From NCBI GenBank assembly GCA_963842085.1, contig CAWJET010000001.1, forward strand, positions 2,752,001 through 2,816,000: a stretch of 64,000 nucleotides of DNA, written 5' to 3'. The DNA is from an uncultured delta proteobacterium. Its GTDB lineage: Bacteria; Desulfobacterota; Binatia; Binatales; Binataceae. The position numbers and the translations under genes were made by a program. The notes beneath the pieces are model-generated. The model searched no databases. It was not told the origin of the DNA and saw only the letters and a program-made list of their open reading frames with translations. Positions 6,385 to 23,564 of this stretch are shown piece by piece; the stretch's first letter is position 1, and each line of letters opens with the position of its first letter.

Positions 6385-7401
6385 TTATCTTGCCGGCTTT
6401 ACGGCCGGTTTGCCCGCCTCCGCTTTCCGCTCGAGTGCGATCGCGCGCCGATGCTCGTCGAACGTTCTGGAAAAGACGTGAGTGCCGCCTTCGCGCGCGA
6501 CAAAATAGAGAAAATCGGTCTGCGTCGGGTATAGCGCTGCTTCGATTGATTTGAGCCCCGGATTAGCGATCGGCCCCGGCGGCAGGCCGGTAAAGTCGTA
6601 GGTGTTGAAAGCCGACGCCGTGTGGACCGCGCTCGCGGCCGGTTCCTTGCTGCCGTCGAGCTCGTACTCGGCCGTCGGATCGGATTGCAGGGGCATTCCG
6701 AGCCGCAGCCGATTGTAGAAAACACCTGCGATTAGAGGGCGCTCGCCGGCCGCTTTCGCCTCCTTCTCGACGATCGAGGCCATCGTGACCAGCCGGCGCG
6801 CGTCGAGGCCGACCGCGAACATCCGCTCTTCAACCTGCGGCGTCAGGACCTGGTAGAACCGCGCGAGCATGGCGGCGAGCACGTCGTTGGTCTTCGCGTG
6901 CGGCGAGAACCTGTAGGTCGCGGGGAACAGGTAGCCTTCCGCGCCGAGCGGCATCAGGCCAAGCGCGCGGACTATCGCGCCGTGGCGCGCGGCATCTTCG
7001 AACTGGTCCTCGCAGACCAGGCCCGTCTCGGCCAGCTTTTCTGCGATCTGATGGACGGTCAAGCCTTCGGGAATGGTGACCGTCACGACGATAAAATCAC
7101 CCCTGACCAAATGGCCCATCACGTCGGGAATCCGCTCGCCGCCGTGGAAAGCATAGTCGCCCGGCTTGATTTCGCGCGCGGTCTGGCTCATCTGGCCGTA
7201 CAATCGGAGCGCGAGTTCGCTTCGAACGACGCCGGCGTCGGCCAGCGCCCGCGCGATTTGGCGAAAGGACTCGCCCTTTTCAATCGTGAGCTCGCGCGGC
7301 GGTGAGAATCTTTCGGTAGGACTGAGCCAGAAGTACGAAAGCGCGGCGTACGAAGCGCCCAAGACGATCGCGATAACGAGAACTGTCGCCGCAAGCTTCA
7401 T
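6385..7401 (-). CDS. mltG: Endolytic transglycosylase MltG (YceG)
   Basis: N-terminal TM, VTIPEG, EGYLFPATY, ASIVEKEA, NRLRLGMPLQSDPT, GLPPGPIANPG, LYFVA. Confidence 0.95.
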   Translation of the reverse strand: MKLAATVLVIAIVLGASYAALSYFWLSPTERFSPPRELTIEKGESFRQIARALADAGVVRSELALRLYGQMSQTAREIKPGDYAFHGGERIPDVMGHLVRGDFIVVTVTIPEGLTVHQIAEKLAETGLVCEDQFEDAARHGAIVRALGLMPLGAEGYLFPATYRFSPHAKTNDVLAAMLARFYQVLTPQVEERMFAVGLDARRLVTMASIVEKEAKAAGERPLIAGVFYNRLRLGMPLQSDPTAEYELDGSKEPAASAVHTASAFNTYDFTGLPPGPIANPGLKSIEAALYPTQTDFLYFVAREGGTHVFSRTFDEHRRAIALERKAEAGKPAVKPAR

Positions 7402-7437: not shown

Positions 7438-7491
7438 TTAGCAGCGGTCGCCGCGCGGAATTTTGTCCGGATCCGCCTGCATCCAGCCTTC
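7438..7491 (-). pseudogene. Orphan 3' end of a displaced ruvX copy
   Basis: Translates EGWMQADPDKIPRGDRC*, versus intact RuvX C-terminus EGWMQAHPDKVPHARS*; lies directly upstream of mltG. Confidence 0.8.
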
Positions 7492-7527
7492 GACCCCCAA
7501 GCCGTGATCGAACGGGCTATTTTCCTT

Positions 7528-7549
7528 TTATGGCATCTAATGCCATAAT
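7528..7549 (+). promoter_or_regulatory. Palindromic operator overlapping a -10-like hexamer of the TA operon
   Basis: TTATGGCAT-CTA-ATGCCATAA perfect 9-3-9 inverted repeat containing CATAAT (7544-7549). Confidence 0.6.
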
Positions 7550-7846
7550 ACCTTATGCGCCGCTGATTCTTGAGACGCGAGATGTAATTGGAGGCGGGCG
7601 TTTTCTGCAGGAAGTTGGAATTTCGAGTTTCGCGCCCACTCGCGAGCTGCACGAAGGAATCCGGTACTCTCTTTGTCTCGTGGAGCTTGAGAGCGGCAAC
7701 GTGGTTTTGCTCTACGATGTTCATCGGGGTAAGTCGCATCACCGACACTTGCGCGGCAAAGAGACCGTTACAAGTTCGTCAACGAGGACACGTTGCTCGA
7801 CGATTTCTTGCGTGACGTGAATCTGCTCCTGGAGGGTAAGTTATGA
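7530..7846 (+). pseudogene. DUF6516 (TumE-like) putative toxin, frameshifted
   Basis: GIRYSL...LLYDVHRGKSHHRHLRGKET then a one-base loss at about 7767 (GAG ACC GT TAC AAG). The shifted frame gives YKFVNEDTLLDDFLRDVNLLLEGKL*, ending in an ATGA overlap with the antitoxin. Confidence 0.75.
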
Positions 7847-8244
7847 GCGCACGGCGGCTTTACATCGGTATCCGCGCGAGTGCTGAGCGATCCAAAGCGC
7901 TTCGCGAAGCGATTCGGCGAGTCGCGCGCGGTGACCGCGCCTCGCAGGGGGCGGGGCTATATTTCGAAACCGTCGAGGAGCTTCGGCAGATTCTGACCGA
8001 GAAGCGGCTGGAACTGTTGCTCGCGATCACGCGCTACCGGCCGGCGTCGGTCCACGAACTCGCCGGGCTGCTCGAGCGTGACTACAAGAACGTGAGCACT
8101 GACATCACGCTGCTCGAACGGCTGGGACTGGTAAAGCTGGGCGCTAAGGGCGGCAAGGGAAGAGCGCAGACGCCGACTGTCCCGTATGACGAGATTCAGG
8201 TAACCATCGATCTGCGACAACCGCGCGCGGCACATGCCGCTTGA
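7843..8244 (+). CDS. HVO_A0114-family winged-HTH protein, putative antitoxin
   Basis: LYFETVEELRQILTEKRLELL...PASVHELAGLLERDYKNVSTDITLLERLGLV...PTVPYDEIQVTI; coupled to the DUF6516 gene. Confidence 0.8.
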   Translation: MSARRLYIGIRASAERSKALREAIRRVARGDRASQGAGLYFETVEELRQILTEKRLELLLAITRYRPASVHELAGLLERDYKNVSTDITLLERLGLVKLGAKGGKGRAQTPTVPYDEIQVTIDLRQPRAAHAA

Positions 8245-8251
8245 CAGCGCT

Positions 8252-8342
8252 GCATCCCGGCGATCGCCTTGAGGTCTGTTTTGAGCGCGTGCCGCTCGAC
8301 GATTGCCGTGGATGCGCTCCCCATCGAGGCCGCGTCGGTGAC
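8252..8342 (-). pseudogene. Decayed internal fragment of ruvX (copy of 10454-10544)
   Basis: 23-bp exact match CCCATCGAGGCCGCGTCGGTGAC (8320-8342 = 10522-10544), then a colinear, partly mismatched match down to GCATC[CT]CGGCGAT. Confidence 0.8.
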
Positions 8343-8586
8343 TCGATCGGCGACACCCTGTTACCTTCGGAACCACCCTGATCTCGTAGGCACGCGCGGC
8401 ACGCATCGCGGCGTGGGCTGAAGATCCAATCACTACCGATTCATTTTTCTTTTGATTTCTTTAGCGGCCGGCGATGCGCTTGGCGTGGCTCTTGCGTCTT
8501 TGAATTCGCAAGAAAAAGAGTTGAATCGAGCGCTCGCGGACCGATCACGAGCGGGCGGCGCAATGCTCGCCGCCAAGAAGGCAGTC

Positions 8587-10110
8587 ATGGCGCCATCCAA
8601 AGAATCTTTCCGGCTGAGCACCCAAGACGCGTCGTTCCTCTATGGTGAGGCGGCTAATGGACCGTTGAATATGGCGATGCTTGGCACGTTCCGCAGCCAT
8701 ATCGACTTCAAGAGCCTGCGCGCGTACGTGGATGCGCGGATGCATCTGCTGCCCCGCTATCGTCAGCGGCTCGTGTTCGCGCCGCTCAACCTTGCCCATC
8801 CGAGCCTCGAAGACGACCCCGGCTTCGACCTCGCCAATCACATGTTCTGCCATGAGCTGCCGCTCGATTCGTCGGAAGCGGTGCTGATGAAGGCGGTGAT
8901 GCAGGTCTACGAAAAGCCGCTCGATCGCGGCAAGCCGTTGTGGGAACTCCACTTGTTCACCGGCCTGAGGGGTGGACACAGCGCGATCCTTACCAAGATT
9001 CATCATTGCCTTGCCGATGGGATTTCAGGAATGGAACTGCTCGCCGCGACGACGAGCACCCGCCCGGACGCTCCCGCGCCGACGCCTCCAGATGAGCCCT
9101 GGAGGGCGGCGCCGACTCCGGGGCGCGTGGAACGGGTTGCGTCTGCGCTCACCGACCTCGCGCGCTCGCGAATCGAGTTGGCGCGCCGCGCAGCCGACGC
9201 GATCACGAATTTGCGCGATTTGGACGAGCAGGCGTCCGCGCCGGCGGCGGTCGTGCAGACAATCCGGCGAATGGGTCAGCCGATCGTAGCGGCCCCGTGG
9301 AACGCCGCGACGGTGACGGCTGCGCGCACAGTGGCGTGGCTGCGATGCCCGCTTCACGACGTCGCCCGCATACGCACCACCTTCGGCGGGACCATCAACG
9401 ACGTGGTGCTGGCCATCCTGAGCGAAGGGGCCGCGCGCTACCTGGCGTTTCACGGCTGCCCCACCGAGGGGCGTCCTATCCGAATCGGATGTCCGGTGAA
9501 CGTCCGCGCGAAAGACGAATATGGGAAGCTCGGCAACCGCGTCTCGATGATGTTCCCCGAGTTCGACGCCCGGACGATGAACACCGTCGATCGACTGAAG
9601 GCGGTCATCGAGGAGACCTCGCGGATCAAGGCCGCCAAAGAGGCGCTCGCGTTCGAGAACCTGATGTCTGCGCTCGACTACGTCCCGCCGGCAGCACTCG
9701 GGCTGGCGTCGCGGCTGCTGACCTCGGCGATCGAAGTGGGAGGACGGCTCGCCGGCGCGGCGCCACGGCTGGCGCGGCGTGCGCCGATGCTCGGCACGGG
9801 CATCAGCTTCATCGCGACCAACATCCCGGGCTCGCCGGTGCCGGTCTATCTCGCGGGCCATCAGTTGGTCGATACGGTTGGCATGGTTCCGCTCACCGCG
9901 ACGCTCGGCTATGGCGTTACGATCCTGAGCTACAACCGCAACCTCTATTTGGCGCTGACGGCGGAGCCGAACCTGATGCCGGACGTGGGCTTCATGAAGT
10001 CGCGAATCAAGGAGACGCTGCGCGAGTTGATTGCGCGGGTACCGAAGGAGATCGTGCCGGCCGCGCCGTCTGCTGTGCCGGCCTCTGCCGCGATTCGCGA
10101 GGTCGCCTGA
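8587..10110 (+). CDS. Wax ester synthase / diacylglycerol acyltransferase (WS/DGAT)
   Basis: RLSTQDASFLYGE start, PRYRQRL, LDRGKPLWE, catalytic HHCLADG, TINDVVLA, LGNRVS, TNIPG. Confidence 0.9.
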   Translation: MAPSKESFRLSTQDASFLYGEAANGPLNMAMLGTFRSHIDFKSLRAYVDARMHLLPRYRQRLVFAPLNLAHPSLEDDPGFDLANHMFCHELPLDSSEAVLMKAVMQVYEKPLDRGKPLWELHLFTGLRGGHSAILTKIHHCLADGISGMELLAATTSTRPDAPAPTPPDEPWRAAPTPGRVERVASALTDLARSRIELARRAADAITNLRDLDEQASAPAAVVQTIRRMGQPIVAAPWNAATVTAARTVAWLRCPLHDVARIRTTFGGTINDVVLAILSEGAARYLAFHGCPTEGRPIRIGCPVNVRAKDEYGKLGNRVSMMFPEFDARTMNTVDRLKAVIEETSRIKAAKEALAFENLMSALDYVPPAALGLASRLLTSAIEVGGRLAGAAPRLARRAPMLGTGISFIATNIPGSPVPVYLAGHQLVDTVGMVPLTATLGYGVTILSYNRNLYLALTAEPNLMPDVGFMKSRIKETLRELIARVPKEIVPAAPSAVPASAAIREVA

Positions 10111-10146
10111 GCCGCGAGCGCTTGCTCCGGTTGCGCGTCCGCGACG

Positions 10147-10181
10147 AAAGTCCCCCGCTAACTGCGAGCGTGGGGGACTTT
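10147..10181. terminator. Hairpin between convergent WS/DGAT and ruvX
   Basis: AAAGTCCCCC...GGGGGACTTT inverted repeat overlapping the ruvX stop. Confidence 0.55.
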
Positions 10182-10592
10182 GTCCGGATGCGCTTGCATC
10201 CATCCTTCCAGGATGACGACTGCCGCAAGGGCGTCGACGCCGCTCTTGCGCGTGCCCTTCCTCGCCGGCATATCCGCCAGACGATCGCGGGCTTCGAAGC
10301 TTGTCAGCCGCTCGTCGAATAACTCGACGGTGACGCGCAGCTCGAGCGCGAGGTGCGCGGCGAACTTGCGCGCGGAGCGGGCCGCAGGGCCTTCGCTGCC
10401 ATCCATGTTGAGCGGCAGGCCGACGACGATCATGCTCACGCGGCGGTCACCAAGCATCTCGGCGATTGCGTCGAGGTCGCGCTTGAGTGCGCGCCGTTCG
10501 ACGATTCCCAGCGGATACGCACCCATCGAGGCCGCGTCGGTGACAGCAACCCCGATTCGACGGCTGCCGAGATCAAGCGCTGCTATTGGCAT
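10158..10592 (-). CDS. ruvX: RuvX/YqgF pre-16S rRNA nuclease
   Basis: ALDLGSRRIGVAVTD, VVGLPLNMDGSEG, DERLTS, VDALAAVVILEG. Confidence 0.95.
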   Translation of the reverse strand: MPIAALDLGSRRIGVAVTDAASMGAYPLGIVERRALKRDLDAIAEMLGDRRVSMIVVGLPLNMDGSEGPAARSARKFAAHLALELRVTVELFDERLTSFEARDRLADMPARKGTRKSGVDALAAVVILEGWMQAHPDKVPHARS

Positions 10593-10706
10593 CCGCGTCC
10601 CTCTCCAATCGCGTCGGGTGCGCTTGATACTCACGATTCATAGATGATCTCCCTCGTCTGGCGGGACAGTAACAATTTTTATGGCCGCTGATACTATAGG
10701 TGCCGC

Positions 10707-11819
10707 ATGCGTTCCCCGGCGCTTTGTTTTGCGAATGTCGTATTGGCGGTGCTGCTCTGCCCTGCATCGGCGTGGGCCTGGGGAAATGACGGGCACGAAA
10801 TCGTTGCAGTCATCGCGGCTGATAATCTCACGCCGGCGGCGGCGAGCCACGTGGCAAACATCCTGGACGTGCCCGCGAATAAAAGAGCAATTGCAACCGC
10901 GATGGAGGCGTCTTCGATCCGTCCGGATACCGAATTCCGCGATGAAGATAAATCGACCGCCTCGTGGCATTTTATCGACATTTGTCTGCAGGACCGGCGA
11001 ACCGACGTTCCGGCGCGATGCCCCGGCGGCAACTGCATAACCCGGAAAATTGACGAATACTCCAAGCGCTTGAAAGAGGGGAAGTACGACCGATGGGGTG
11101 CGGCCGATGATTTGGCGTTCCTGATTCATTTTGTCGGTGACATCCACCAACCGTTGCACGCCGCGAATGACGAAGACCGCGGCGGCAATTGCGTGACCGT
11201 CGATTCGCGTTATCGAGAAACGAATCTTCACGCCATTTGGGACACCACTGTCGTGCGCCGCCTCGAATACGATATCGATTCCGGAAGGCCCGAGACTACA
11301 GCCCACAAGTTGGAACGAACATATGCGGATGAGAAAGAGGCCGATTCGTGGATTCCTGCAGACGATATCGCATGGGGATCGAATCAAATTGCGCGTTCCG
11401 ACATCTACGCCGCGCTGCAAATCCGGATCGAACCCTGCCAACCCACAGCCGATGTATGCCGCAATCCCTTAGGCCATCCCGTTGAGCTCAACGCTGCTTA
11501 CCTGGACCACGCTGACGCGGTCGCGGGTCATCAGCTTGCGAAAGCGGGATTCAGGCTGGCGAGCCTCTTGAATGAGATCTGGACACAGCCCGTTCGTCCG
11601 AACGATGCGACGGGTGCCGCGAAAGCCAATTCGGCCCCGGCGGAAGTTCCTCCGTCGGATACCGCATTGGGCCAAATCGTCGGTAATCGACGAAGCAAGA
11701 TTTACGCGTGGCCGGGGTGCGGAAGCTACGACAAGATGGCGCCTGGGAATCGAGTCGTGTTTCCCAGTCGTGGAGCGGCGGAACAGGCGGGGTTTCGGGC
11801 GGCTCGGAATTGTCCTTAA
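10707..11819 (+). CDS. Exported S1/P1 nuclease with C-terminal Ada-like metal-binding domain
   Basis: Signal peptide then WGNDGH, WHFID, HFVGDIHQPLH, NLHAIWD zinc motifs; C-terminus GNRRSKIY..PGC..Y..M...NRVVF.S...AEQAGFRAARNCP. Confidence 0.9.
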   Translation: MRSPALCFANVVLAVLLCPASAWAWGNDGHEIVAVIAADNLTPAAASHVANILDVPANKRAIATAMEASSIRPDTEFRDEDKSTASWHFIDICLQDRRTDVPARCPGGNCITRKIDEYSKRLKEGKYDRWGAADDLAFLIHFVGDIHQPLHAANDEDRGGNCVTVDSRYRETNLHAIWDTTVVRRLEYDIDSGRPETTAHKLERTYADEKEADSWIPADDIAWGSNQIARSDIYAALQIRIEPCQPTADVCRNPLGHPVELNAAYLDHADAVAGHQLAKAGFRLASLLNEIWTQPVRPNDATGAAKANSAPAEVPPSDTALGQIVGNRRSKIYAWPGCGSYDKMAPGNRVVFPSRGAAEQAGFRAARNCP

Positions 11820-11934
11820 CGGTGCCAATCTAACGACGGATGCGTGAATTGGTGTCGCTGCCGTAACCGGAACATCAAATATCTGACATGTTGGGGTTGC
11901 GTTGAGTCGCCAAATCACTTACGTTCGCTAAACG

Positions 11935-13413
11935 ATGGCGGCTCGGGGGAGAAGCTTCGCGGGATATCCACGCGCGTTGGTGGGGTTGGTCGTTGCCCTG
12001 GTCGCGACCACCACCGCTCTGTTTCTTTTTTTTCAAACAAATCCGCAGGTTTTTTCCTCGCCGCTCGACACGCTCAGCTCCGAAATGGACGCCGGCAAGG
12101 AGATTCCTGACGTAGTCGAACAATCCGAATCCGCCCAGCCCGCTCCTCCATCGATCACAATCAGCACGACGCTCGATCGTACCGCGCCCATCGAGAGCTA
12201 CCTGCGCGAAGCCGGGATGGAGCCGGCCGACGCGCACCAGTGGGCGTCGTACCTCCAGCGCATCCTCGCGAACCGGTATTTTCACAGCGGGCATCCGCTG
12301 ACGCTATACAAGGATCCCGAGACCGGCGAGATGCGCGGGCTCAAATACGATCTTGACGAAAAGACCGCGGTGACCGCGGCGAGCCTCGGCGCAGGCGTGC
12401 TGAAGGCCGGGCTGCGGCCCATCGAATATTTCATTCGGCCGATCAAGATGACGTTCGGGGTCAAGGACAGCTTTCAGCATGCGGCCGCTGAGAACGGGAT
12501 ACCCAAGCCAATTGTTGAATCGCTGCAGGACGCCTTCTCGGACCGCCACGATCTCAACCGGCTGGCGCCCGGGTCGGCGGTCAAGTTGATTTACGACGAA
12601 AAGGTGAGCCGCGACGGCTCGTACACGCTGGTCGGCGGCGTGCAGGCGGCGCAAATCCGGTTTGGCAGCCGCACGTTGACGGCGATCTCGTTTGCGGACG
12701 AGCAGGGCCGCCCGCATTTGTATGACGAACAAGGACATGCGCTCGGTCCGCAGTCGCTGAAGTTTCCGCTCAATTTTGAGTACATATCTTCCGGCTTCAC
12801 GTTCCATCGCTATCATCCGATTCTGCACGAGTTCCGCCCGCATTTCGGTGTCGACCTGGTGGCGAAATACGGCGAGCCGGTCAAAGCCGTTGCCGATGGC
12901 CAGGTTATAAGCGCCGGATGGCAGGGCGAGCTCGGCAATTGCATCCGCCTCCAGCATCAGCATGAGATGGTCAGCCTTTACGGTCATCTGTCGAAGATTA
13001 GTCCCGAGGTGAGGCCGGGCGCCTACGTCCATGTCGGGCAGGTGATTGGCAATGTCGGTTCGACCGGCCTGTCGACCGGGCCGCATCTCCACTTCGGGAT
13101 GGAAAAAGCGGGAATGTGGGTCAATCCCCTGACCGAGAAACTCGGCGAGAATCACCAGGTGTCGCCGCGGATGAAGGCGCTGTTCGACGACATCAAGGAC
13201 CAATACCAATCCGCGCTGGCCGAACTTCCCGACCTCGGCAGCCACTTCATCGCGTCCGGAGAGCGCAAGCCCGCAATCTCGAAGTTCGCCGACATGTACC
13301 ACGTGACGCTCGGCCGCAGCTTGGGCAGGAGCAGGCATCTGCGGGGACAGAGAATTTCGAGCCTCCGCAGCGGCCGGGCGCTCGGAGCCGCACAGTCCGA
13401 CGGCGCTCTTTGA
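11935..13413 (+). CDS. M23 family peptidoglycan endopeptidase (MepM-like)
   Basis: N-terminal TM; ISSGF..HRYHPIL, HFGVD (HxxxD), YGHLS, GSTGLSTGPHLHF. Confidence 0.9.
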   Translation: MAARGRSFAGYPRALVGLVVALVATTTALFLFFQTNPQVFSSPLDTLSSEMDAGKEIPDVVEQSESAQPAPPSITISTTLDRTAPIESYLREAGMEPADAHQWASYLQRILANRYFHSGHPLTLYKDPETGEMRGLKYDLDEKTAVTAASLGAGVLKAGLRPIEYFIRPIKMTFGVKDSFQHAAAENGIPKPIVESLQDAFSDRHDLNRLAPGSAVKLIYDEKVSRDGSYTLVGGVQAAQIRFGSRTLTAISFADEQGRPHLYDEQGHALGPQSLKFPLNFEYISSGFTFHRYHPILHEFRPHFGVDLVAKYGEPVKAVADGQVISAGWQGELGNCIRLQHQHEMVSLYGHLSKISPEVRPGAYVHVGQVIGNVGSTGLSTGPHLHFGMEKAGMWVNPLTEKLGENHQVSPRMKALFDDIKDQYQSALAELPDLGSHFIASGERKPAISKFADMYHVTLGRSLGRSRHLRGQRISSLRSGRALGAAQSDGAL

Positions 13414-13510
13414 TCTGAACGTCCCTACGTTTTCGCTCCAATCTTCCGCCGCCGTTGCCAGTTCGCGGTTTCCCGGCTACTGCTGAGAGCGCGACGCGTC
13501 GCATCTGAAA

Positions 13511-14323
13511 ATGCGCGAGCATCCGAATACCGACTTCTTCACGCCCGCGGCGCCGCGCGTTTTTGGGCATCGCGGTTCCGCCGGCACGCATCCCGAGAAT
13601 ACGCTCGAATCGTTTGGGGCCGCCGCCGCGAGCGGCGCCGAGTATCTCGAATTCGACATCCACATGACGCGCGACGGCGAAGTCGTTGTCAGTCACGACG
13701 ACCATCTGGAGCGCACCTGCGGACGCACCGGCGTCATCCGCGAGATGACATACGCCGAGCTCGCGGCGGCGGACGCGGGCCGGACGTTCACGCTCGACAG
13801 CGCAACATTTCCATTCAGGGACAAGGGCATCCGCGTGCCGCGCCTGGCCGAGGTCCTGGCGGCTTTTCCAAAAATGCGGATGATAGTGGAGGTCAAGCAG
13901 ATAGCACCAAGCGTGGTCGCCCCGATGCTCGACGTGATCGATCGCGCCGGGATGCGCCGCAACGTGCTCGTCGCCAGCGAGCATCAGCAGCCGCTCGACG
14001 AGGTCCGGATGCTGGCGCCGGAAATTCCGACAAACTTTTCGTATCTCGAAGCGGGCGGATTCTTTCAGGCGATGGTGAGCCGCGACAACTATCGGCCGCC
14101 CGGCGACGCACTTCAAATCTCGCACTTTTACGAGAACTGGGAACTGGTCACTCGCCAGAGTGTCGAATTCGCGCACAGCGTTGGAATCGAAATGCACGTC
14201 TGGACGGTGAACGAGGAAGCCGAGATGCGGCAACTGCTCGACATGGGCGTCGACGGCCTGATCAGCGACTATCCACGCCGCGCGCTCGATGTGATTCGCC
14301 GGCGCGCATCTGCACAGCGCTGA
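13511..14323 (+). CDS. Glycerophosphodiester phosphodiesterase
   Basis: GHRG...PENT, EFDIHMTRDG.VVVSHD, VWTVN, GVDGLISDYP. Confidence 0.92.
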   Translation: MREHPNTDFFTPAAPRVFGHRGSAGTHPENTLESFGAAAASGAEYLEFDIHMTRDGEVVVSHDDHLERTCGRTGVIREMTYAELAAADAGRTFTLDSATFPFRDKGIRVPRLAEVLAAFPKMRMIVEVKQIAPSVVAPMLDVIDRAGMRRNVLVASEHQQPLDEVRMLAPEIPTNFSYLEAGGFFQAMVSRDNYRPPGDALQISHFYENWELVTRQSVEFAHSVGIEMHVWTVNEEAEMRQLLDMGVDGLISDYPRRALDVIRRRASAQR

Positions 14324-14416
14324 GCGCGCTTTTCTATCTGCCGCCGGCTTTGCCAGTTTGGCGCGGGCTTTGTTACGATTTCGCCCGCTCATCGAAGATT
14401 TACGCGGGAGAAAATT

Positions 14417-15436
14417 ATGAAACTCGATACCGGTCTCTCGACGCGCAATTTGCGCGATGTTCCGGCCGCCGCGCGCGCGGCAGAAGCGGCTGGATTCGAT
14501 GCGATCTGGATCCCCGAGGCCGGCAACGACGGTTTCCTCCCCGCCGCGCTGATCGCGGAGCATACCAGGCGAATCAAAATGGGGACGTCGGTTGCGATTG
14601 CGTTTCCGCGCAGCCCGATGATTACCGCGGCGACTGCGTGGGATCTCGCCGGACTTTCGGAGGGCCGGTTCATCCTCGGGCTCGGCACCCAGGTGAAGGG
14701 CCATATCGAGCGGCGCTACAGCACCAAGTGGGAAGCGCCGGTGCCGCGCCTGCGCGAGTACCTGCTGTCGCTTCGTGCGATTTTCAAATGCTGGTCGGAG
14801 GGCGGCGCGAAGCTTTCGTTCCAGGGCAAGTACTACAACTTCTCGCTGATGACGCCGTTCTTCACTCCCGCCAGGCACAACTTTCCCAACGTGCCGATTC
14901 ACATCGCGGGCGTCAACGAACATGTCATCCGGCTCGCCGGCGAACTGTGCGAGGGCCTGCATGCGCATCCGTTCAACTCGCCCAAGTACCTGCGCGAATT
15001 CGTACTGCCGAACGTCGAGAAGGGGCTAAAAAAGGCGGGGCGTGCGCGCAAGGACTTCGAAATCCAATCGACGGCGTTCGTGATCACCGGGCGCAACCAG
15101 GACGAAATAAAAAAAGCGCGCGAAGCGGTCCGGCAGCAGATCTCGTTCTACGCCTCAACGCGCACCTACAAGGTCGTGCTCGACATGCATGGATGGGGCG
15201 ACGTCGCGCAGCGGCTGAACGAAAAGGCGGCCAAGGGCGAGTGGGTCGCGATGGCCAAAGAGATCACGGACGAGATGCTCGACGTGTACACGGTCGCGGG
15301 CACCTACGACGAAATCGCGGACAAGGTGATGCAGCGTTACGGCGGGCTGCTCGACCGGGTCGCGTTTTACCTCCCGTATCGCGCGGGAACCGACGACGCC
15401 GAGTGGGCAAAGCTTGCGAAGCGATTCAATGGCTGA
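14417..15436 (+). CDS. LLM-class, probably F420-dependent oxidoreductase (TIGR03617-like)
   Basis: VAIAFPRSPM, GRFILGLGTQVKGHIERRY, FSLMTPFF, QISFYASTRTY. Confidence 0.85.
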   Translation: MKLDTGLSTRNLRDVPAAARAAEAAGFDAIWIPEAGNDGFLPAALIAEHTRRIKMGTSVAIAFPRSPMITAATAWDLAGLSEGRFILGLGTQVKGHIERRYSTKWEAPVPRLREYLLSLRAIFKCWSEGGAKLSFQGKYYNFSLMTPFFTPARHNFPNVPIHIAGVNEHVIRLAGELCEGLHAHPFNSPKYLREFVLPNVEKGLKKAGRARKDFEIQSTAFVITGRNQDEIKKAREAVRQQISFYASTRTYKVVLDMHGWGDVAQRLNEKAAKGEWVAMAKEITDEMLDVYTVAGTYDEIADKVMQRYGGLLDRVAFYLPYRAGTDDAEWAKLAKRFNG

Positions 15437-15493
15437 GTCTCACCATCGTCGTGACAGATTTTCTTGAATCGGCTTAACAAGGAGAGAACTTCG

Positions 15494-15925
15494 ATGAGCA
15501 AGGCAAGGTTGAAAACGATGGCCGCGATTGCGGCCGTGGCGGCGTTGATGCTCCCGAGCGTTAGCCGAATCGCAATGGCGCAGGGCGCAGCTCCCTCAGC
15601 CGCCGCGGCGCCCGCGATGGAAGAACCCGGCACGAGGAGCTTCAAGCTCGTCTCAGTCGAGGTGGATGGCGCGAAAATCTGGCTGCCCAGCGTGATCGCG
15701 GTCGAGCAGGGCGACAAGGTAAAGCTCACGCTCGAGAACCTGGTGCCGGGCGCGTCGAATCAGCACGGCTTTACGATTCCGGCATACAACATCACGGAAG
15801 TCGTGACCCGCGGCGAACCCAAGACGGTCACGTTCGTCGCCGACAAGCCGGGCGTATACCAGTACTTCTGTCAGTTGCATCCCGCGCACATCGGCGGTTC
15901 GCTAATCGTCGAACCCGGGAAGTAG
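15494..15925 (+). CDS. Exported cupredoxin, nitrosocyanin-like
   Basis: Signal peptide; PSVIAVEQGDKVKLTLEN, HGFTI, FVADKPGVY.YFCQLHPAH. Confidence 0.8.
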   Translation: MSKARLKTMAAIAAVAALMLPSVSRIAMAQGAAPSAAAAPAMEEPGTRSFKLVSVEVDGAKIWLPSVIAVEQGDKVKLTLENLVPGASNQHGFTIPAYNITEVVTRGEPKTVTFVADKPGVYQYFCQLHPAHIGGSLIVEPGK

Positions 15926-16005
15926 CAGGCGCGGGAGCTTGGGTTGCGTCTCGCCGGCGCGTCCCCGATGCCATCGGCGCGCGAAAGGGCTAGGCTTGAT
16001 CGCAC

Positions 16006-16830
16006 ATGCGCACGGTAGTCCTCTATGCGCGCTCGCCGGATTGGCGCGCAGTGGTCGAGCGCGCCGACCAGTTGATGGCGTCGCCGGATTTTCGCGTGCT
16101 CAAGACTGAAGGACGGACGCGCGCGGGATTTCTCGACGTTCCCGGCGCGGGGACCGCGTTTATAAAGCGCGTCGAGGTTCCGTCATGGAGCCGCGGCGTG
16201 TACGCGCGACTTCGGGGATCTCGCGCCAGGCGATCGCTCGCGGGCGCGTTGATGCTCGAGGCGCACGGGATCGCGCATCCGCAGCCGCTGGCGGCGATGG
16301 ATTTGTATCAAGCGGGTGCGATTCGAGCCTCGTATGTCGTCAGCCGCGCGCTCGTCAACGCCGACTCTCTGAGCCGCTTCATGCTCGGGCCGGGAGAAAT
16401 CAAGGGGCGCAACGTGCATCGGCGTAAACAAATCTCCGACGCGGTGGCCGCGCAAATTCGGCGCCTCCACGAGTCCGGGCTTTACACGCGCGATCTGCAA
16501 GAGACCAACATCATGGTCGAGGAAAACGAGGCTGGCGGCTTCAACGTGTACTTCATCGACCTCGAGGATTTCCGCCGCGCCGCCAACGTCTCGTGGGACC
16601 GCAGAGTTACGAACCTGGTGCATCTCGATCGCAGCATCGGGCGATTTCTCTGCCGCGCGGCGCGCCTCGATTTTCTGTACTCCTACCTGGGGCATCGGCC
16701 CGACCGCGCGGCCGCGCGCAGGATGGTTGCCGAAGTCAAGGCGACGCGCGAGTCGATCGATCGCCGCAAGCGCCGCGGCGCGCCGGCTGCCGAGCGGGTC
16801 GTGGCGCCGCTTGCTGGAGGAACAAAGTAG
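16006..16830 (+). CDS. Kdo/WaaP/InaA-family LPS kinase-like protein
   Basis: AFIKR, SRARR, LHESGLYTRDLQETNIMV, FIDLED, NLVHLDRS. Confidence 0.75.
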   Translation: MRTVVLYARSPDWRAVVERADQLMASPDFRVLKTEGRTRAGFLDVPGAGTAFIKRVEVPSWSRGVYARLRGSRARRSLAGALMLEAHGIAHPQPLAAMDLYQAGAIRASYVVSRALVNADSLSRFMLGPGEIKGRNVHRRKQISDAVAAQIRRLHESGLYTRDLQETNIMVEENEAGGFNVYFIDLEDFRRAANVSWDRRVTNLVHLDRSIGRFLCRAARLDFLYSYLGHRPDRAAARRMVAEVKATRESIDRRKRRGAPAAERVVAPLAGGTK

Positions 16831-17552
16831 TGGCTTTTTCGATCCTCAGCCGCGAGTACGACCATCACACCGAGCAGGTCCACGCCGCCGGCGGAAGCTG
16901 GGTGCGCGACTTGATGCTGGGGCTGAACGACGGATTGGTCGCGTCGTTCGCGGTCACCTCCGGCGTGGCGGGCGCATTCGTGACCGGCAACGCGGCGATG
17001 ATGGCGGGGCTGTCGGAGATGCTCGGCGGCGCGGTCGCGATGGGGCTCGCGGCATTCATCTCGGCGCGCTCGCAGATCGAATTCTACAAGAGCGAGATAG
17101 AACGCGAGCACGACGAAATCCGCCGATGGCCCGAACGCGAGCGCGAAGAGATCAGCACCATCTATCGAAAAAAAGGATTCGCGGGGCCGCTGCTGGATCA
17201 GATTGTCGCGCACATCACTTCAGATCCCCAGCGCTGGAGCAACGTCATGATGCGCGAGGAGCTGGGCTTCAACGAAGAATCGTTCGACAACCCGATCCGC
17301 TCCGCGTTTGCCGTCGGCTTGTCATATCTCACCGGCGCGGCAGTGCCGGTGTGGGCGTATATTTTCTTTGAGCCGGGCCAGGCGCTGAAAGTGTCGGCCA
17401 TCTCGACGGTCGCGGTGCTGTTCGCGGTCGGCGCGCTCAAGACGATCATCACCAGCCGTTCATGGTGGCGCAGCGGACTTGAAAGCATGTTGGTCGGAGT
17501 AGCAGCGGCGGGTGCGACTTACGCCGCGGGCCGCATGTTTGCCGCGCGCTGA
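16830..17552 (+). CDS. VIT1/CCC1 iron/manganese transporter
   Basis: RDLMLGLNDGLV, AGLSEMLGGAVAMG, EREEISTIY..KG, MMREELG; GTG start overlaps the kinase stop. Confidence 0.9.
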   Translation: MAFSILSREYDHHTEQVHAAGGSWVRDLMLGLNDGLVASFAVTSGVAGAFVTGNAAMMAGLSEMLGGAVAMGLAAFISARSQIEFYKSEIEREHDEIRRWPEREREEISTIYRKKGFAGPLLDQIVAHITSDPQRWSNVMMREELGFNEESFDNPIRSAFAVGLSYLTGAAVPVWAYIFFEPGQALKVSAISTVAVLFAVGALKTIITSRSWWRSGLESMLVGVAAAGATYAAGRMFAAR

Positions 17553-17572
17553 GTCTCCGCGCGGTGCGCGCG

Positions 17573-17878
17573 TTACGCTTCGACGAGAATGTCGTCGCCG
17601 TCGGCCTTCACCGCGTAACATCCGAGCTTGACGCTCGGGTCGTCGAGGTTCGCGCCAGTCGTGACGTCGTACTCCCATCCGTGCCACGGGCAGGTGACGG
17701 TGGTGCCGTCGAGCTCGCCCTCGGCGAGCGGGCCGCCGCGATGCTTGCAGGTGTTGTCGATCGCGTAGAATTTCCCGCCCGCGTTGAACAGCGCGATCTG
17801 TTTGCCCGCGGCTTCGACAAGTTTGGCGCTGCCCTCGGGCAGGTCAGCCACCTTTGCAACTTTGATGAAGCTTGCCAT
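17573..17878 (-). CDS. Rieske [2Fe-2S] ferredoxin
   Basis: CKH...CPWHGW motifs. Confidence 0.93.
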   Translation of the reverse strand: MASFIKVAKVADLPEGSAKLVEAAGKQIALFNAGGKFYAIDNTCKHRGGPLAEGELDGTTVTCPWHGWEYDVTTGANLDDPSVKLGCYAVKADGDDILVEA

Positions 17879-17894
17879 CCGGATTTGCCTCCGC

Positions 17895-19091
17895 TCAGGT
17901 CGTATATTCCGCGTTGATTCGCACGTAATCGTAGCTCAGGTCGCAAGTCAGAATAGTGGCGGTTGATTTCCCCAACCGCAGATCGAGGCGCACCGCGAAT
18001 TCGCGCGCCTTCATCGCGGCCCCCGCGCCGGGCAGCGCCTCGGTCAGCAGCCGGCCGTGCGCGGCGACCTTCACTCCGCCGATCGACAGTACCAGCTTGT
18101 CGGACTCGACGTAGGCGCCCGACGAGCCCGCGGCCATCAGTATTCGGCCGACATTCGGATCGCATCCGAAGAACGCCGTCTTGACCAGCGGCGAGTTGGC
18201 GATTTGCCGGGCCGCCCGCTCAGCGTCGGCGGGAGTGCGAGCGCCGCGCACCTCGACGGTGACGAGCTTGGTAGCGCCCTCGCCGTCGCGCACGAGTTCG
18301 CGCGCGAGCGCCGCCGAGATTTCCGCGACCGCGCTATCGAACGCAGCCTGATCGCGCGCGCCGAACGCGCGATTTTCCGCGGCGCCGCTCGCCATGATTA
18401 TCACGGTGTCATTGGTCGACATGTCGCCGTCCACGGTGATCGCGTTGAAGCTCTTGGGCAGCGCGGCCTTGAGCGATTTTTTCAGGAAAGAGGGAGCGAT
18501 CATCGCGTCTGTGACCAGATACCCGAGCATCGTCGCCATCTTCGGCGAGATCATGCCGACGCCCTTCACTGCGCCGGCGAGCGTGATGGTCGAGCCTCCG
18601 GCCGTGAAAGTTGTCGAGGCGGTCTTGGCGCGCGTGTCGGTCGTCATGATCGCGTGCGCGAAGTCGGCGAGCCCGTCTTCGCGCAGCGCTCGTACGGCAT
18701 CGGCGGCGCCGCTTTTGAATTTCGCGAGGTCGTAGAGATGGCCGATCACGCCGGTCGAGGATGGCGCGACGAGTTGCGGCGCGCATCCGAGCAGTCGCGC
18801 TACGTGCGCGCATGAATCGCGCGCGAGCCGCGTTCCCGCTTCGCCGGTGAAACTGTTGGCGCATCCCGAGTTCGCGACCACCGCCTGCAAGCGGCCCGCC
18901 TTGACGCGCTCCGCCGTCACATAGACCGGTGCGGCTTTCACGCGATTGGCGCTGAACACCGCGGCTGCGGCGGCCGGGCGATCGGCTGCGATGATGCCCA
19001 GGTCCAGCGCGCCGGCCGTGGTCTTGAGGCCCGCGCTGACGCCGGCGAATCGAAATCCGCGCACGGCGGCGGGCTCGAGTGCGACTTTCAT
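17895..19091 (-). CDS. argJ: Ornithine acetyltransferase ArgJ
   Basis: NSGCANSFTG, STGVIG, IMTTDT, KGVGMISPKMATML, VDGDMSTND, DGEGATK, YVRINAEYTT. Confidence 0.96.
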   Translation of the reverse strand: MKVALEPAAVRGFRFAGVSAGLKTTAGALDLGIIAADRPAAAAAVFSANRVKAAPVYVTAERVKAGRLQAVVANSGCANSFTGEAGTRLARDSCAHVARLLGCAPQLVAPSSTGVIGHLYDLAKFKSGAADAVRALREDGLADFAHAIMTTDTRAKTASTTFTAGGSTITLAGAVKGVGMISPKMATMLGYLVTDAMIAPSFLKKSLKAALPKSFNAITVDGDMSTNDTVIIMASGAAENRAFGARDQAAFDSAVAEISAALARELVRDGEGATKLVTVEVRGARTPADAERAARQIANSPLVKTAFFGCDPNVGRILMAAGSSGAYVESDKLVLSIGGVKVAAHGRLLTEALPGAGAAMKAREFAVRLDLRLGKSTATILTCDLSYDYVRINAEYTT

Positions 19092-19173
19092 CCGGCAGGA
19101 ATCCTCCGTGCGCCGAACTATACGCGGACCGAGGGTGGGTGCAAATGGAAGACTGCCGGGACCCTTCTCGGCG

Positions 19174-21855
<2,682 letters not shown>

Positions 21856-21976
21856 CTTATCTGAGCGATTTATCCGGCAAGTTTGAAGGTTGTGAGCGCG
21901 CCAAATCGATGCGGCGTACAAAGTTTAGCTGGAAATCATCTTATCGTGAAATCGGAAGATTGGAGAGAGGGGCTTG

Positions 21977-22064
21977 CTAACGTTCGATGCGGACGGCGGA
22001 TTCGACTTGCGGGCCGAGAAATCTGCGGCCGACGCGGACGAAGCGGTCCGGCGTCTCGGTGACG
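21977..22064 (-). pseudogene. Orphan duplicate of the murI 3' end
   Basis: Encodes VTETPDRFVRVGRRFLGPQVESAVRIER*, the same as the MurI C-terminus. 21996-22064 is identical to 22717-22785 (69 bp); the last codons differ only synonymously. Confidence 0.93.
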
Positions 22065-22071
22065 CGAAATA

Positions 22072-22329
22072 TCACGCGCGTTTCCGCTGCACCGCGTCTT
22101 CCAGCGCCTGCCGGATGAAGCGCTGATAGGGAACTCCTGCCCTGGCCGCGGAGGCTCTCACTGCGTCGAGCAGCAGCCGTGGCAGGCGCATGTTCACCCG
22201 CTCGCTCTTGGGCTGAAACTCGAAACGGATTGGCCGCATGCCGGACAGATCGTATTCAGTCAGGTCGGCCTTCTCGACAAACTCCTCGGCGCTTTTATCG
22301 CTTTTGAAGCGTGGCAGTTTCTTTTTCAT
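22072..22329 (-). CDS. CopG/BrnA-like ribbon-helix-helix antitoxin
   Basis: LPRFKSD..AEEF...DLTEY, VNMRLP..LLDAVRASA...GVPYQRFIRQALE. Confidence 0.85.
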   Translation of the reverse strand: MKKKLPRFKSDKSAEEFVEKADLTEYDLSGMRPIRFEFQPKSERVNMRLPRLLLDAVRASAARAGVPYQRFIRQALEDAVQRKRA

Positions 22330-22603
22330 AGTGCTCTACCTCCTTATTGTGCATGAAGCGCGCGCTGATTGGTCGCACGAGTCGCTTGCCCCGTCGCGTC
22401 CGCAGAGCGAACACGAGGAAGATCCAGCGATCGTCGTTGCTCTTGCCAATTGCCTTGAACCGTTCCTCGGACTTCGAGTGGAGAGGGTCGGGCAGCACGG
22501 CGATTGAGCCGCGGAAGACGGACTCGATCGCGGCCTGAGAGACGCCGTGCTTTTGGCACTTGGACCGGTTGCCATCGTCCCAATCAAAGCCGGCTATCTC
22601 CAT
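22295..22603 (-). CDS. BrnT family ribonuclease toxin
   Basis: GFDWDDGNRSKCQKHGVS, DPLHS.SEERFKAIG, VRPISARFMH.KE; overlaps the antitoxin. Confidence 0.9.
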   Translation of the reverse strand: MEIAGFDWDDGNRSKCQKHGVSQAAIESVFRGSIAVLPDPLHSKSEERFKAIGKSNDDRWIFLVFALRTRRGKRLVRPISARFMHNKEVEHYEKETATLQKR

Positions 22604-22630
22604 CGGAGCGCTAACCAAAAGGCGTAATTA

Positions 22631-22660
22631 AGTATGGACCGTTGTACAGCCATTCGTCAA
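22631..22660 (-). promoter_or_regulatory. Sigma70-like promoter of the BrnT/BrnA operon
   Basis: Minus strand TTGACG-N18-CATACT about 28 bp upstream of the toxin ATG. Confidence 0.5.
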
Positions 22661-22697
22661 CCGTGAACCGTGCGTACGATTCGTCGACGATCGCTAT

Positions 22698-23564
22698 CTA
22701 GCGCTCGATCCTCACCGCGGATTCGACTTGCGGGCCGAGAAATCTGCGGCCGACGCGGACGAAGCGGTCCGGCGTCTCGGTGACGAAGAAACTCTGGCTG
22801 CCATCGCCGCCGCGCCGAGCGAGCTTGAGCGTCCGCAGCCGTTCGCGCACTTCGGCTGCGGTCGCCGTCGCCGAGTCCACGATCTTCACGCGGGGCCCAA
22901 GGATTAGCGCGAACATATCGCGCAGCAGCGGGTAGTGCGTGCATCCCAATAGTAACGTGTCGATGCCGCTCTGCTTGAGACTCTCCAGGTAGTGGGCGAC
23001 GGTCAGTTCCGCGACCGCATTGTCGGTCCATCCTTCTTCGGCCAGCGGCACCAGCAGCGGGCATGCGCGCGTGTAGATTTCGGCGCGTGCGCTGAGCCGC
23101 TGGATCGCGCGGGTGTAGGCGCCTGACGCGATCGTCGCCTCGGTGCCGATCACGCCGATCTTGCCGATGCGCGAGGCCCGGGCCGCCGCGCGTGCGCCCG
23201 GCTCGATCACACCGATAACCGGGACCATCGTGTCAGAGGCGATCGCGTCGAGCGCGACTGCGCTGGAGGTGTTGCAGGCGACCACCAGCATTTTGATTCC
23301 CTTGGCGAGCAGGAATCCGGTGTTCTCTTTCGAGTAACGGACGATGACCTCGTTGGATTTCGTGCCGTACGGCAGGCGCGCCGTGTCGCCGAGGTAGATG
23401 AAGTCTTCGTTGGGCAGGGCCGCGGTCAGCGCTTTCAGGACCGTGAGTCCGCCGATGCCCGAATCGAACACGCCGATCGGCCGGTCGATTGCCGCGCGTG
23501 CGCCGCGCAGAAGTCCGTTCGAAGCGGCGATCGAATTTGATCGAGTTTTTCTGCGCGTAGGCAT
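22698..23564 (-). CDS. murI: Glutamate racemase
   Basis: IGVFDSGIGGLTV, DTARLPYGTKS, VACNT, LGCTHYP. Confidence 0.97.
   Translation of the reverse strand: MPTRRKTRSNSIAASNGLLRGARAAIDRPIGVFDSGIGGLTVLKALTAALPNEDFIYLGDTARLPYGTKSNEVIVRYSKENTGFLLAKGIKMLVVACNTSSAVALDAIASDTMVPVIGVIEPGARAAARASRIGKIGVIGTEATIASGAYTRAIQRLSARAEIYTRACPLLVPLAEEGWTDNAVAELTVAHYLESLKQSGIDTLLLGCTHYPLLRDMFALILGPRVKIVDSATATAAEVRERLRTLKLARRGGDGSQSFFVTETPDRFVRVGRRFLGPQVESAVRIER

Follow-up and report, generated by a model that had tools for sequence, protein, structure and literature searches.

What placed second, partial copies of two housekeeping-gene ends behind the intact genes, with accessory genes in between? The question is raised by a stretch of 64,000 nucleotides (the window; C1:2752001-2816000) in the genome of a Candidatus Binatus, here called G000, which has 4.93 Mb in two contigs (C1 and C2) and a G+C content of 61%. 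In this window the 3' ends of murI and ruvX are each present twice, once attached to the intact gene and once as an orphan on the side of the downstream core gene, secA or mltG. A first-pass annotation had proposed that a dedicated trans-acting recombinase places toxin-antitoxin (TA) cassettes at a short shared core, in a dispersed, integron-like system. Its coordinates for both duplications are correct, its gene identities (murI, BrnT/BrnA, secA, RuvX and YceG/MltG) are confirmed by Pfam profile matches, on which the gene identities below are based unless stated otherwise, and the two insertions are independent, with no tyrosine or serine recombinase gene in the window (PF00589 and PF00239 searched). 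The mechanism is another matter. With moderate confidence, we read the loci as scars of homology-anchored, integrase-independent insertions of circularised DNA fragments. The murI and ruvX sites were compared with those of 18 congeners (G-numbers), and the murI site also with 32 Binatus-like loci from named assemblies (L-numbers). All assemblies are metagenome-derived, and G018 and G035, among the congeners used, are unpublished.

At the murI site all features lie on the minus strand. Intact murI (glutamate racemase, 22698-23564; PF01177) ends in the proximal repeat copy (22693-22785), and the orphan copy (21972-22064) precedes secA (19174-21921; Pfam SecA domains). The copies share 93 nt at 91% identity; no mismatch occurs in the first 68 nt, and the 8 that exist are confined to the last 25 nt (hypergeometric P=1e-5). 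The insert of 0.63 kb is a brnTA cassette (22065-22692) with its own promoter-like region. Its genes, brnT (22298-22603; PF04365 BrnT_toxin, E=1.4e-16) and brnA (22072-22329; PF12441 CopG_antitoxin, E=1.2e-26), are small neighbours that belong to recognised toxin and antitoxin families, as expected of a type II TA pair. The orphan consists of the native last 93 nt of murI and runs into the native murI-secA spacer; its last 25 nt (..GCCGTCCGCATCGAACGTTAG) are the genus consensus. The gene-attached copy ends ..GCGGTGAGGATCGAGCGCTAG, with the last 8 codons synonymously recoded, and encodes the same ESAVRIER* peptide.

The ruvX site holds two inserts, of 2.1 kb and 0.75 kb. Intact ruvX (10158-10590, minus strand; PF03652) is followed by an insert (8343-10157) with a WS/DGAT acyltransferase gene on the opposite, plus strand (open reading frame (ORF) 8452-10110; PF03007 and PF06974). 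Beyond it lies a first orphan piece (8252-8342, minus strand), which corresponds to codons about 16-46 of the old ruvX and matches 10454-10544 over 92 nt at 81.5% identity; the first 23 nt are identical and the copies otherwise differ throughout (17 mismatches). The last ~13 codons of ruvX (10169-10208) recur in a second orphan piece (7452-7491, minus strand; 40 nt, 83%), which consists of native last codons and enters the overlapping ruvX-stop/mltG-start junction typical of empty sites. The downstream core gene is mltG (YceG family, 6385-7401, minus strand; PF02618, E=7e-84). The two orphan pieces are split by a two-gene cassette of 750 bp on the plus strand, which is made up of a TumE-like ORF (7530-7846) and an HVO_A0114-family winged-helix (wHTH) gene, its partner and putative antitoxin (7843-8244; PF25212, E=2.5e-26).

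The first-pass annotation had seen a TA pair in the cargo of both sites. This is right for murI; at ruvX the cargo next to the intact gene is the acyltransferase, and the second cassette qualifies as a TA pair only partly. Its HVO_A0114 gene was found, and its TumE-like ORF is frameshifted near the C-terminus in G000, as revealed by three-frame translation against the copy in G007. The G000 ORF has no Pfam match, the G007 copy matches PF20126 (TumE) below the cut-off (E=0.0046), and no TA name was found for the pair in NCBIfam. From its sequence, the TumE-like ORF may encode a toxin that has been inactivated, whereas the neighbouring HVO_A0114 wHTH gene is intact. In a paralogous cassette between 176-nt repeats (C1:2476504-2477256), there is an intact TumE (PF20126, E=3.5e-11) with HVO_A0114.

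Relatives show what the sites look like without these inserts, and bear out the suspicion of a recombination hot spot: across congeners, both sites are empty or filled with other cargo. The genes murI and secA are contiguous in 8 of the 18 congeners (G001, G004, G006, G007, G008, G009, G013 and G014), and ruvX and mltG in 9 (G002, G003, G005, G007, G008, G011, G012, G013 and G014). Other inserts occur between murI and secA, for example in G012 (1.5 kb) and G015 (2.4 kb), and in 8 of the 32 named loci the sequence behind murI is longer than 1 kb or lacks a secA leader within 2.5 kb. Duplications of the murI end were also found in two other genomes among the 32 loci, of 53 nt in L067, starting at CTCGGCCCGCA, and of 29 nt in L063. 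The cassette itself is mobile: the brnTA unit (~600 bp, from the promoter to 8 nt past the brnA stop) is present at other loci in five congeners (G007, G008, G002, G017 and G010) at 72-82% identity. In G002 it lies behind a gene that we take to be LeuRS-like from its C-terminal sequence, in a stacked arrangement of gene end, brnTA, 128-nt orphan, second cargo and 70-nt orphan. The 128-nt duplication starts at GGGCGCTTC and the third copy, of 70 nt, at GCCACCTC; the copies differ only synonymously. G003 (L018, C3:238008-242600) has a decayed brnTA remnant (the brnT end plus brnA, 89% identical to G000) directly behind a murI with a native-type end and no orphan.

At ruvX, the relatives also disclose how the cargo was joined. 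In G001 the order is ruvX, WS/DGAT gene, mltG, with a single ruvX end and no orphan, and in G009 the WS/DGAT gene lies behind ruvX together with further cargo, again with no ruvX duplication. The attached ruvX of G000 ends as in G001, with ..ARS*, a TAG stop and then the cargo. A tandem duplication of such a G001-like arrangement was considered and rejected, as the distal orphan enters a ruvX/mltG junction of the empty-site type. This orphan piece is collinear with the empty-site sequence of G002 and G007. The cargo of G000 terminates in ...CCGATCGAGTCA, from which the cargo ends of G001 and G009 deviate only slightly; all three share the terminal ...CGAGTCA, after which unrelated sequence follows in G001 and G009. 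Native ruvX reads GCTGTCACCGACG, and the orphan start, GTCACCGA, overlaps the cargo end by GTCA. Since GTCA is common to ruvX and to the cargo end in genomes without the duplication, it is a junction microhomology of 4 nt, and on this comparison the overlap reads as the signature of an illegitimate junction. The TumE-like/HVO_A0114 cassette was also observed upstream of ruvX, between it and the gene that precedes it, in G007 (L024, C1:1932002-1935733) and G003 (L031); it is thus found on either side of ruvX, depending on the species.

An assembly artefact or a chance similarity is scarcely credible as the source of the repeats. With 8 and 17 mismatches between the two copies, the repeats are not the product of reads that were collapsed or duplicated. 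In addition, the orphans align collinearly with empty sites in other genomes, and similar structures are present in independent assemblies (G002, L067 and L063).

The two loci are not alone in the genome. A whole-genome self-BLAST, filtered for two-copy direct repeats (at most 2 self-hits) of ≤600 nt that lie 150 nt to 10 kb apart, returned 56 families, and a second, more sensitive window-by-window scan, in which rows were kept if a long ORF of high third-position G+C ended in the gene-side copy, returned 57 rows with an ORF stop in that copy. Curation left 20 gene-3'-end duplications, with repeats of 25-176 nt and inserts of 0.5-4.6 kb. Candidates were dropped if they looked like paralogous domains (e.g. 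C1:651720 and C1:2959014), intergenic palindromes or dispersed repeats (C1:3238288, C1:2664362 and C2:1213387), 5'-end duplications (C1:91836 and C1:2980301) or tRNA-end duplications (C1:2124675 and C2:1041679). Further targets identified by Pfam are an FAA hydrolase, an APH-family kinase, an Rrf2 regulator, an ABC permease, a GlmS-like protein (GATase plus SIS), a glycogen synthase-like protein, a ClpA/B-type ATPase, an MBL/alkyl-sulfatase and UvrB. Empty versions exist in congeners at all 6 sites checked, namely murI, ruvX, the ClpA-like gene, the APH-family gene, the glmS-like gene and the MBL-sulfatase/uvrB pair. The ClpA-like site, which holds hicAB in G000, is empty in G001, G005, G007, G008, G009, G014 and probably G034; hicAB is present at the same site in G018 and in the published G010. 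The APH-family site, with a higBA-like pair, is empty in G013 and G037, and the same cassette lies behind the same gene with one gene end only in the relatives G035, G001, G033 and G037. The glmS-like site is empty in G001, G011 and G033.

The cargo does not define a TA system. Pfam analysis of the cargo at 8 sites ruled out TA specificity: BrnT/BrnA, HicA/HicB, Gp49(HigB-like)/HTH and TumE/HVO_A0114 pairs were found alongside a luciferase-like monooxygenase, an AurF-like di-iron oxygenase, an NAD-epimerase/NmrA protein and the WS/DGAT acyltransferase. Judged by ORF size only, large secreted or membrane proteins are also among the cargo.

Does a common core mark these junctions? Both orphans of the window do start, on the minus strand, at the octamer GTCACCGA, which occurs 5 times in the window (2.59 expected), with 4 of the occurrences in the repeat copies, and 336 times in the genome. 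A single trans-acting recombinase or hot-spot enzyme that puts minimal TA cassettes at this core inside coding genes would explain the identical starts, and two random 16-nt windows from gene 3' ends have some common 8-mer with a probability of only 0.0038, i.e., ~0.004 for one given junction pair. The glmS-like junction (C1:2655216), which starts at GCGGCACCGACG, has CACCGACG in common with ruvX, and 23 recombinase genes lie elsewhere in the genome. We nevertheless regard this explanation as very improbable. The octamer is missing at 18 of the 20 curated junctions, murI and ruvX being the exceptions, and CACCGA occurs at 3 of 20, the third being glmS-like. When random sets of 20 windows of 16 nt were taken from the terminal 30-200 nt of 2611 confident ORFs, 49% of the sets had one or more shared 8-mers and 51% had a 6-mer common to at least three windows. 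A search for shared motifs at the 20 junctions found no common k-mer beyond chance, apart from a modest pairwise excess of 8-mers that is weighed below. Half of the octamer at ruvX, the GTCA, is part of the cargo end in G001 and G009. The murI duplications of L067 and L063 lack the octamer and start 40 and 64 nt further downstream, which gives three different breakpoints across three genomes, and the G002 duplications around the same brnTA start at GGGCGCTTC and GCCACCTC. The first-pass annotation had named unrelated starts elsewhere and different breakpoints in relatives as the observations that would count against it, and both were made. On this evidence the shared octamer start looks coincidental and not like a site of recombination, and the idea of a dispersed, integron-like system built on an 8-bp core does not hold.

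Classical site-specific integration offers another way to obtain a duplicated gene end. Phage 21 and e14 integrate inside icd, supply a 3' end with silent differences and displace the native end, by means of their own integrase and one fixed core. Elements of this type, or cis-mobilisable ones, whose attP mimics a gene 3' end and whose integrase is lost or encoded elsewhere, would leave the synonymous replacement end and displaced native end that are seen here, and G000 does have a genuine integrase island with a tRNA-end duplication (C2:1041679-1050241). This origin is unlikely on several grounds. At least 20 target genes would demand as many specificities, and the breakpoints at one site vary between genomes. 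The inserts of 0.5-4.6 kb leave hardly any non-coding DNA in which arm sites could lie: in G000 and G002 the next repeat begins only 8-24 nt after the brnA stop, the cassette copies are no longer homologous beyond that point, and upstream of brnT there are about 30 nt plus the promoter before the repeat. Duplications of gene 5' ends occur as well, and the abutting, permuted orphans of two genes described below are not an att product. A dedicated trans-acting recombinase is thus not needed; the junctions fit homologous plus illegitimate recombination.

Which copy is native and which is foreign can be read from the two gene ends. At murI, the ClpA-like gene and ruvX the polarity is the same: the orphan has the empty-site sequence of the genus and the gene-attached copy is a foreign end. 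The ClpA-like orphan has the consensus C-terminus and native downstream sequence, and the attached copy deviates in the last ~12 nt. The intact genes therefore have a replacement 3' end and the displaced native end adjoins secA or mltG, as had been stated for the two sites of the window. For a codon-position test 19 junctions were entered, of which 14 were analysable; four were skipped because of indels, and ruvX had no assigned ORF. The differences between copies number 8/3/33 at codon positions 1/2/3, i.e., 33 of 44 fall in third positions, and the differing codons comprise 29 synonymous and 13 non-synonymous cases. The third-position bias is significant against equal thirds (P=2e-8) and against a mixed model with constraint on the functional copy alone (our own estimate of 45% third positions; P=5e-5). 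Simple decay of a self-duplicated copy is rejected by this test. The bias indicates that the copies are alleles that evolved as functional gene ends in two lineages. Judged from these differences, the incoming DNA brought its own gene end, and the intact genes now carry an imported, mostly synonymous 3' end.

This result bears on a third alternative, a true long target duplication. Here a staggered break, with nicks tens to hundreds of nt apart, would be filled in around captured DNA, or a one-step break-induced or template-switch event with a linear donor would copy the donor tail plus the cargo, in the manner of homology-facilitated illegitimate recombination (HFIR). The 68-nt identical block of murI followed by a diverged tail, the several repeats with 98-100% identity and the presence of Ku all suit such an event, and a published class is named in this way (PMC2853133). 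We give it a minority chance, clearly below that of circle insertion. The third-position bias is also found within the long left parts of repeats (all 5 differences at C1:2317071, all 4 at glmS and all 4 within the coding stretch of the C2:661037 repeat), the ruvX copies differ along their whole length, and the permuted orphans need a circular or tandem intermediate.

These orphans lie at C2:767570-772972, where an MBL-sulfatase gene (gene 1, plus strand) and uvrB (minus strand) are convergent. The two genes are neighbours in G002, G014, G035 and G004, where their stop codons lie 71-263 nt apart. G000 has, in order, gene 1, cargo A (837 bp), uvrB-end orphan, 4 nt (CTCA), gene 1-end orphan, cargo B (1089 bp, NmrA-like by eye) and uvrB. 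The stop codon is retained in each orphan, and the encoded C-termini are variant. Had two end insertions taken place independently, one after the other, the orphans would lie in the opposite order, which is not seen; the permuted order points to a single crossover with a circle that consisted of a gene 1 stub, cargo and a uvrB stub and was closed stub to stub. In a genome-wide scan for permuted orphans, which returned 7 rows, only this locus (C2:768777/769627) was convincing; the other rows were rejected as repeated protein domains or as part of the dispersed-repeat region at C1:2555-2563 kb.

Insertion of circularised fragments, the reading that we prefer, could proceed as follows. A DNA fragment from a related Binatus lineage would carry a conserved gene end, such as that of murI or ruvX, and the accessory gene or genes that lie behind it in the donor. 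It would become a circle by illegitimate closure at 2-4 nt of microhomology, either in the donor or after entry, and the Ku protein of G000 could close it. The circle would then enter by one homologous crossover of the RecA type inside the gene end, i.e., by Campbell-type integration. Such integration would leave the gene whole, with part of its 3' end imported, followed by the cargo, the closure junction, the displaced native end as the orphan, and lastly the native downstream gene. Stacked cassettes would arise from further events at the same gene end. We infer the circular intermediate, the parts played by RecA and Ku and the route of DNA entry from the products described above. This account explains the imported and the displaced gene ends, the microhomology where cargo meets orphan, the donor-like arrangements without duplication, the stacking and the lack of a recombinase in the window. 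Repeats would always span the gene end because only fragments with a stop (or start) codon leave the target intact, and there would be no common core because a chance break of the fragment sets the repeat length.

Several observations weigh against this account. The murI block of 68 nt is identical even at sites that are polymorphic in the genus, yet there are 8 differences in the last 25 nt; such an identical block with a diverged tail calls for a donor that was mosaic or very closely related, or for gene conversion at a later time, and would also fit the staggered-break or copy-choice variant. Several of the other repeats are 98-100% identical, so that donor and recipient alleles are not separable there. 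The 20 junctions were picked by eye. Pairs of junctions with some common 8-mer number 4 vs 0.71 expected (P=0.012); the 8-mers in those pairs are all different, which leaves at most a weak compositional preference. The genome encodes 14 tyrosine (PF00589) and 9 serine (PF00239) recombinases, the nearest PF00589 gene being ~90 kb away at C1:2661804, and in principle any of these 23 could work in trans. G000 encodes Ku, ComEC and DprA, and in 14 control genomes Ku was found in 1, ComEC in 10 and DprA in 11; ComEC and DprA are thus near-universal and give little sign of natural competence in these uncultured bacteria. Finally, the evidence comes from assemblies, in which no circular form, excision product or population polymorphism was seen.

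A more far-reaching possibility, which we put forward tentatively and hold to be less probable than the account above, is recombinase-free cassette traffic within Binatus. An accessory gene with a core-gene stub would be excised, circularised (by Ku/LigD or mediated by the repeats) and then integrated, through a single RecA crossover, in a relative that lacks it. Integron-like stacks would form, cassettes flanked by repeats would be self-propagating, since excision would regenerate the integrating circle, and TA modules would be selfish riders.

Other repeats were noted in the course of these scans. Two duplications involve gene 5' ends: C1:91836-91889 / 92366-92419 (54 nt, 100%, 0.5-kb insert) and C1:2980301-2980409 / 2984505-2984613 (109 nt, 98%, 4.1-kb insert). 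From their first residues the duplicated genes are presumably serS and a TrmJ-like methyltransferase gene, and the two cases would be the mirror image of the 3'-end events. Two duplications resemble tRNA 3' ends. One (C1:2124675-2124796 / 2126774-2126895) encloses ~2 kb with no integrase among its ORFs, and the other (C2:1041679-1041740 / 1050180-1050241) flanks an 8.4-kb classical integrase island with a tyrosine recombinase (C2:1049264). Dispersed repeats of ~100 and 118 nt at C1:2655060-2655164 and C1:2656715-2656832 (L037 661-765 and 2316-2433) have many copies of 85-94% identity per genome across the genus, and one of them lies beside the glmS orphan; they may be MITEs, REP elements or small RNAs. 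A cluster of multi-copy repeats of 45-135 nt among small ORFs (C1:2555100-2563000) is not a simple gene-end duplication. C1:2051552-2057333 is a large array of perfect 36-41-nt repeats with a spacing of ~70-75 nt, presumably a CRISPR array. Within the window, a 240-nt direct repeat (29702-29937 / 30874-31115; 75%, 0.9 kb apart) probably represents paralogous gene segments.

To which known systems are the loci related? They belong to the insertions with long target duplication, a recognised class that is still poorly understood and was reportedly described by Nobusato et al. (2000, Gene 259:99). The class shares with the present loci small gene units without a mobility gene, unique direct repeats, a target gene that is kept intact and an addiction-type module as cargo. 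By Furuta, Abe and Kobayashi (2010, NAR 38:2428, PMC2853133) it is documented for restriction-modification (RM) genes in Helicobacter, Haemophilus, Neisseria and others, with repeats of 30 to about 420 bp, no mobility genes and repeats that often span a start or stop codon, and the mechanism is left open. A 2013 review repeats the long target duplication for RM systems (PMC3874152). The loci of the window conform in structure. Their repeats exceed 30 bp (93 and 92 nt; 25-176 nt in the 20 curated cases), relatives have an empty site with one repeat copy at both murI and ruvX, and both repeat pairs are unique in the genome, with ≤2 self-hits in the self-BLAST. The inserts are below 20 kb and have no mobility gene as far as the PF00589 and PF00239 search of the window goes, transposase families not having been searched. 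The departure is that the two repeats do not both derive from the target, the attached ends being foreign and mostly synonymous; this calls the name of the class into question, not the structural membership of the loci. Unlike the published RM cases, the cargo here consists of type II TA pairs and metabolic or secreted-protein genes, and ~20 events are found in one genome, with stacking. Unlike a target duplication proper, the copies behave as donor and recipient alleles, and one locus is permuted, which speaks for the integration of circular fragments.

The likeness to phage 21 and e14 is confined to the replacement gene end that the insert supplies; here the inserts have no integrase, the breakpoints are variable and the targets are many. 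Integron cassettes are similar in that they are units of one or two genes with or without a promoter, often encode TA pairs and accumulate in stacks at a single site, where the latest arrival lies nearest the point of entry. In contrast to integrons, the repeat between cassettes here is the host gene end and is different at every locus, neither attI nor a PF00589 gene that could represent intI is present in the window, and the 8-24 nt that follow the brnA stop before the repeat begins (G000 and G002) give no indication of attC, for which no model was run. HFIR combines one homologous anchor with one illegitimate junction at a microhomology of a few bases and usually results in insertion with deletion. 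In insertion-duplication, single-crossover integration of a circle (Campbell) duplicates the homologous segment, and this is known mainly as a laboratory tool. The loci resemble these processes of naturally transformable bacteria in the homologous anchor, the microhomology junction and the duplicated segment; they differ from HFIR in having a duplication in place of a deletion, and from insertion-duplication in that they would represent a recurrent natural route. In a literature search that covered neither subscription journals nor supplements, no directly relevant paper on HFIR or insertion-duplication was found, nor any gene-end-duplication structure for type II TA or metabolic genes; long target duplication appeared with TA only in RM-centred papers, and nothing was found on mobile elements of Binatia.

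The gene-end duplications of G000 form a dense natural data set, with ~20 events in one genome and more in congeners, on how genes enter a genome without a mobile-element enzyme. They widen the phenomenon from RM genes to TA and metabolic genes, and to an uncultured soil phylum. Three lines of evidence, the allele-like differences, the ruvX microhomology and the permuted orphans, lead to a testable single-crossover mechanism. In genome annotation, a short copy of a gene end in an intergenic region can serve as a marker of a recent insertion and of its polarity. If cassette traffic of the kind outlined above does take place in Binatus, it would provide the mechanism for insertion with long target duplication that has been missing since 2000.

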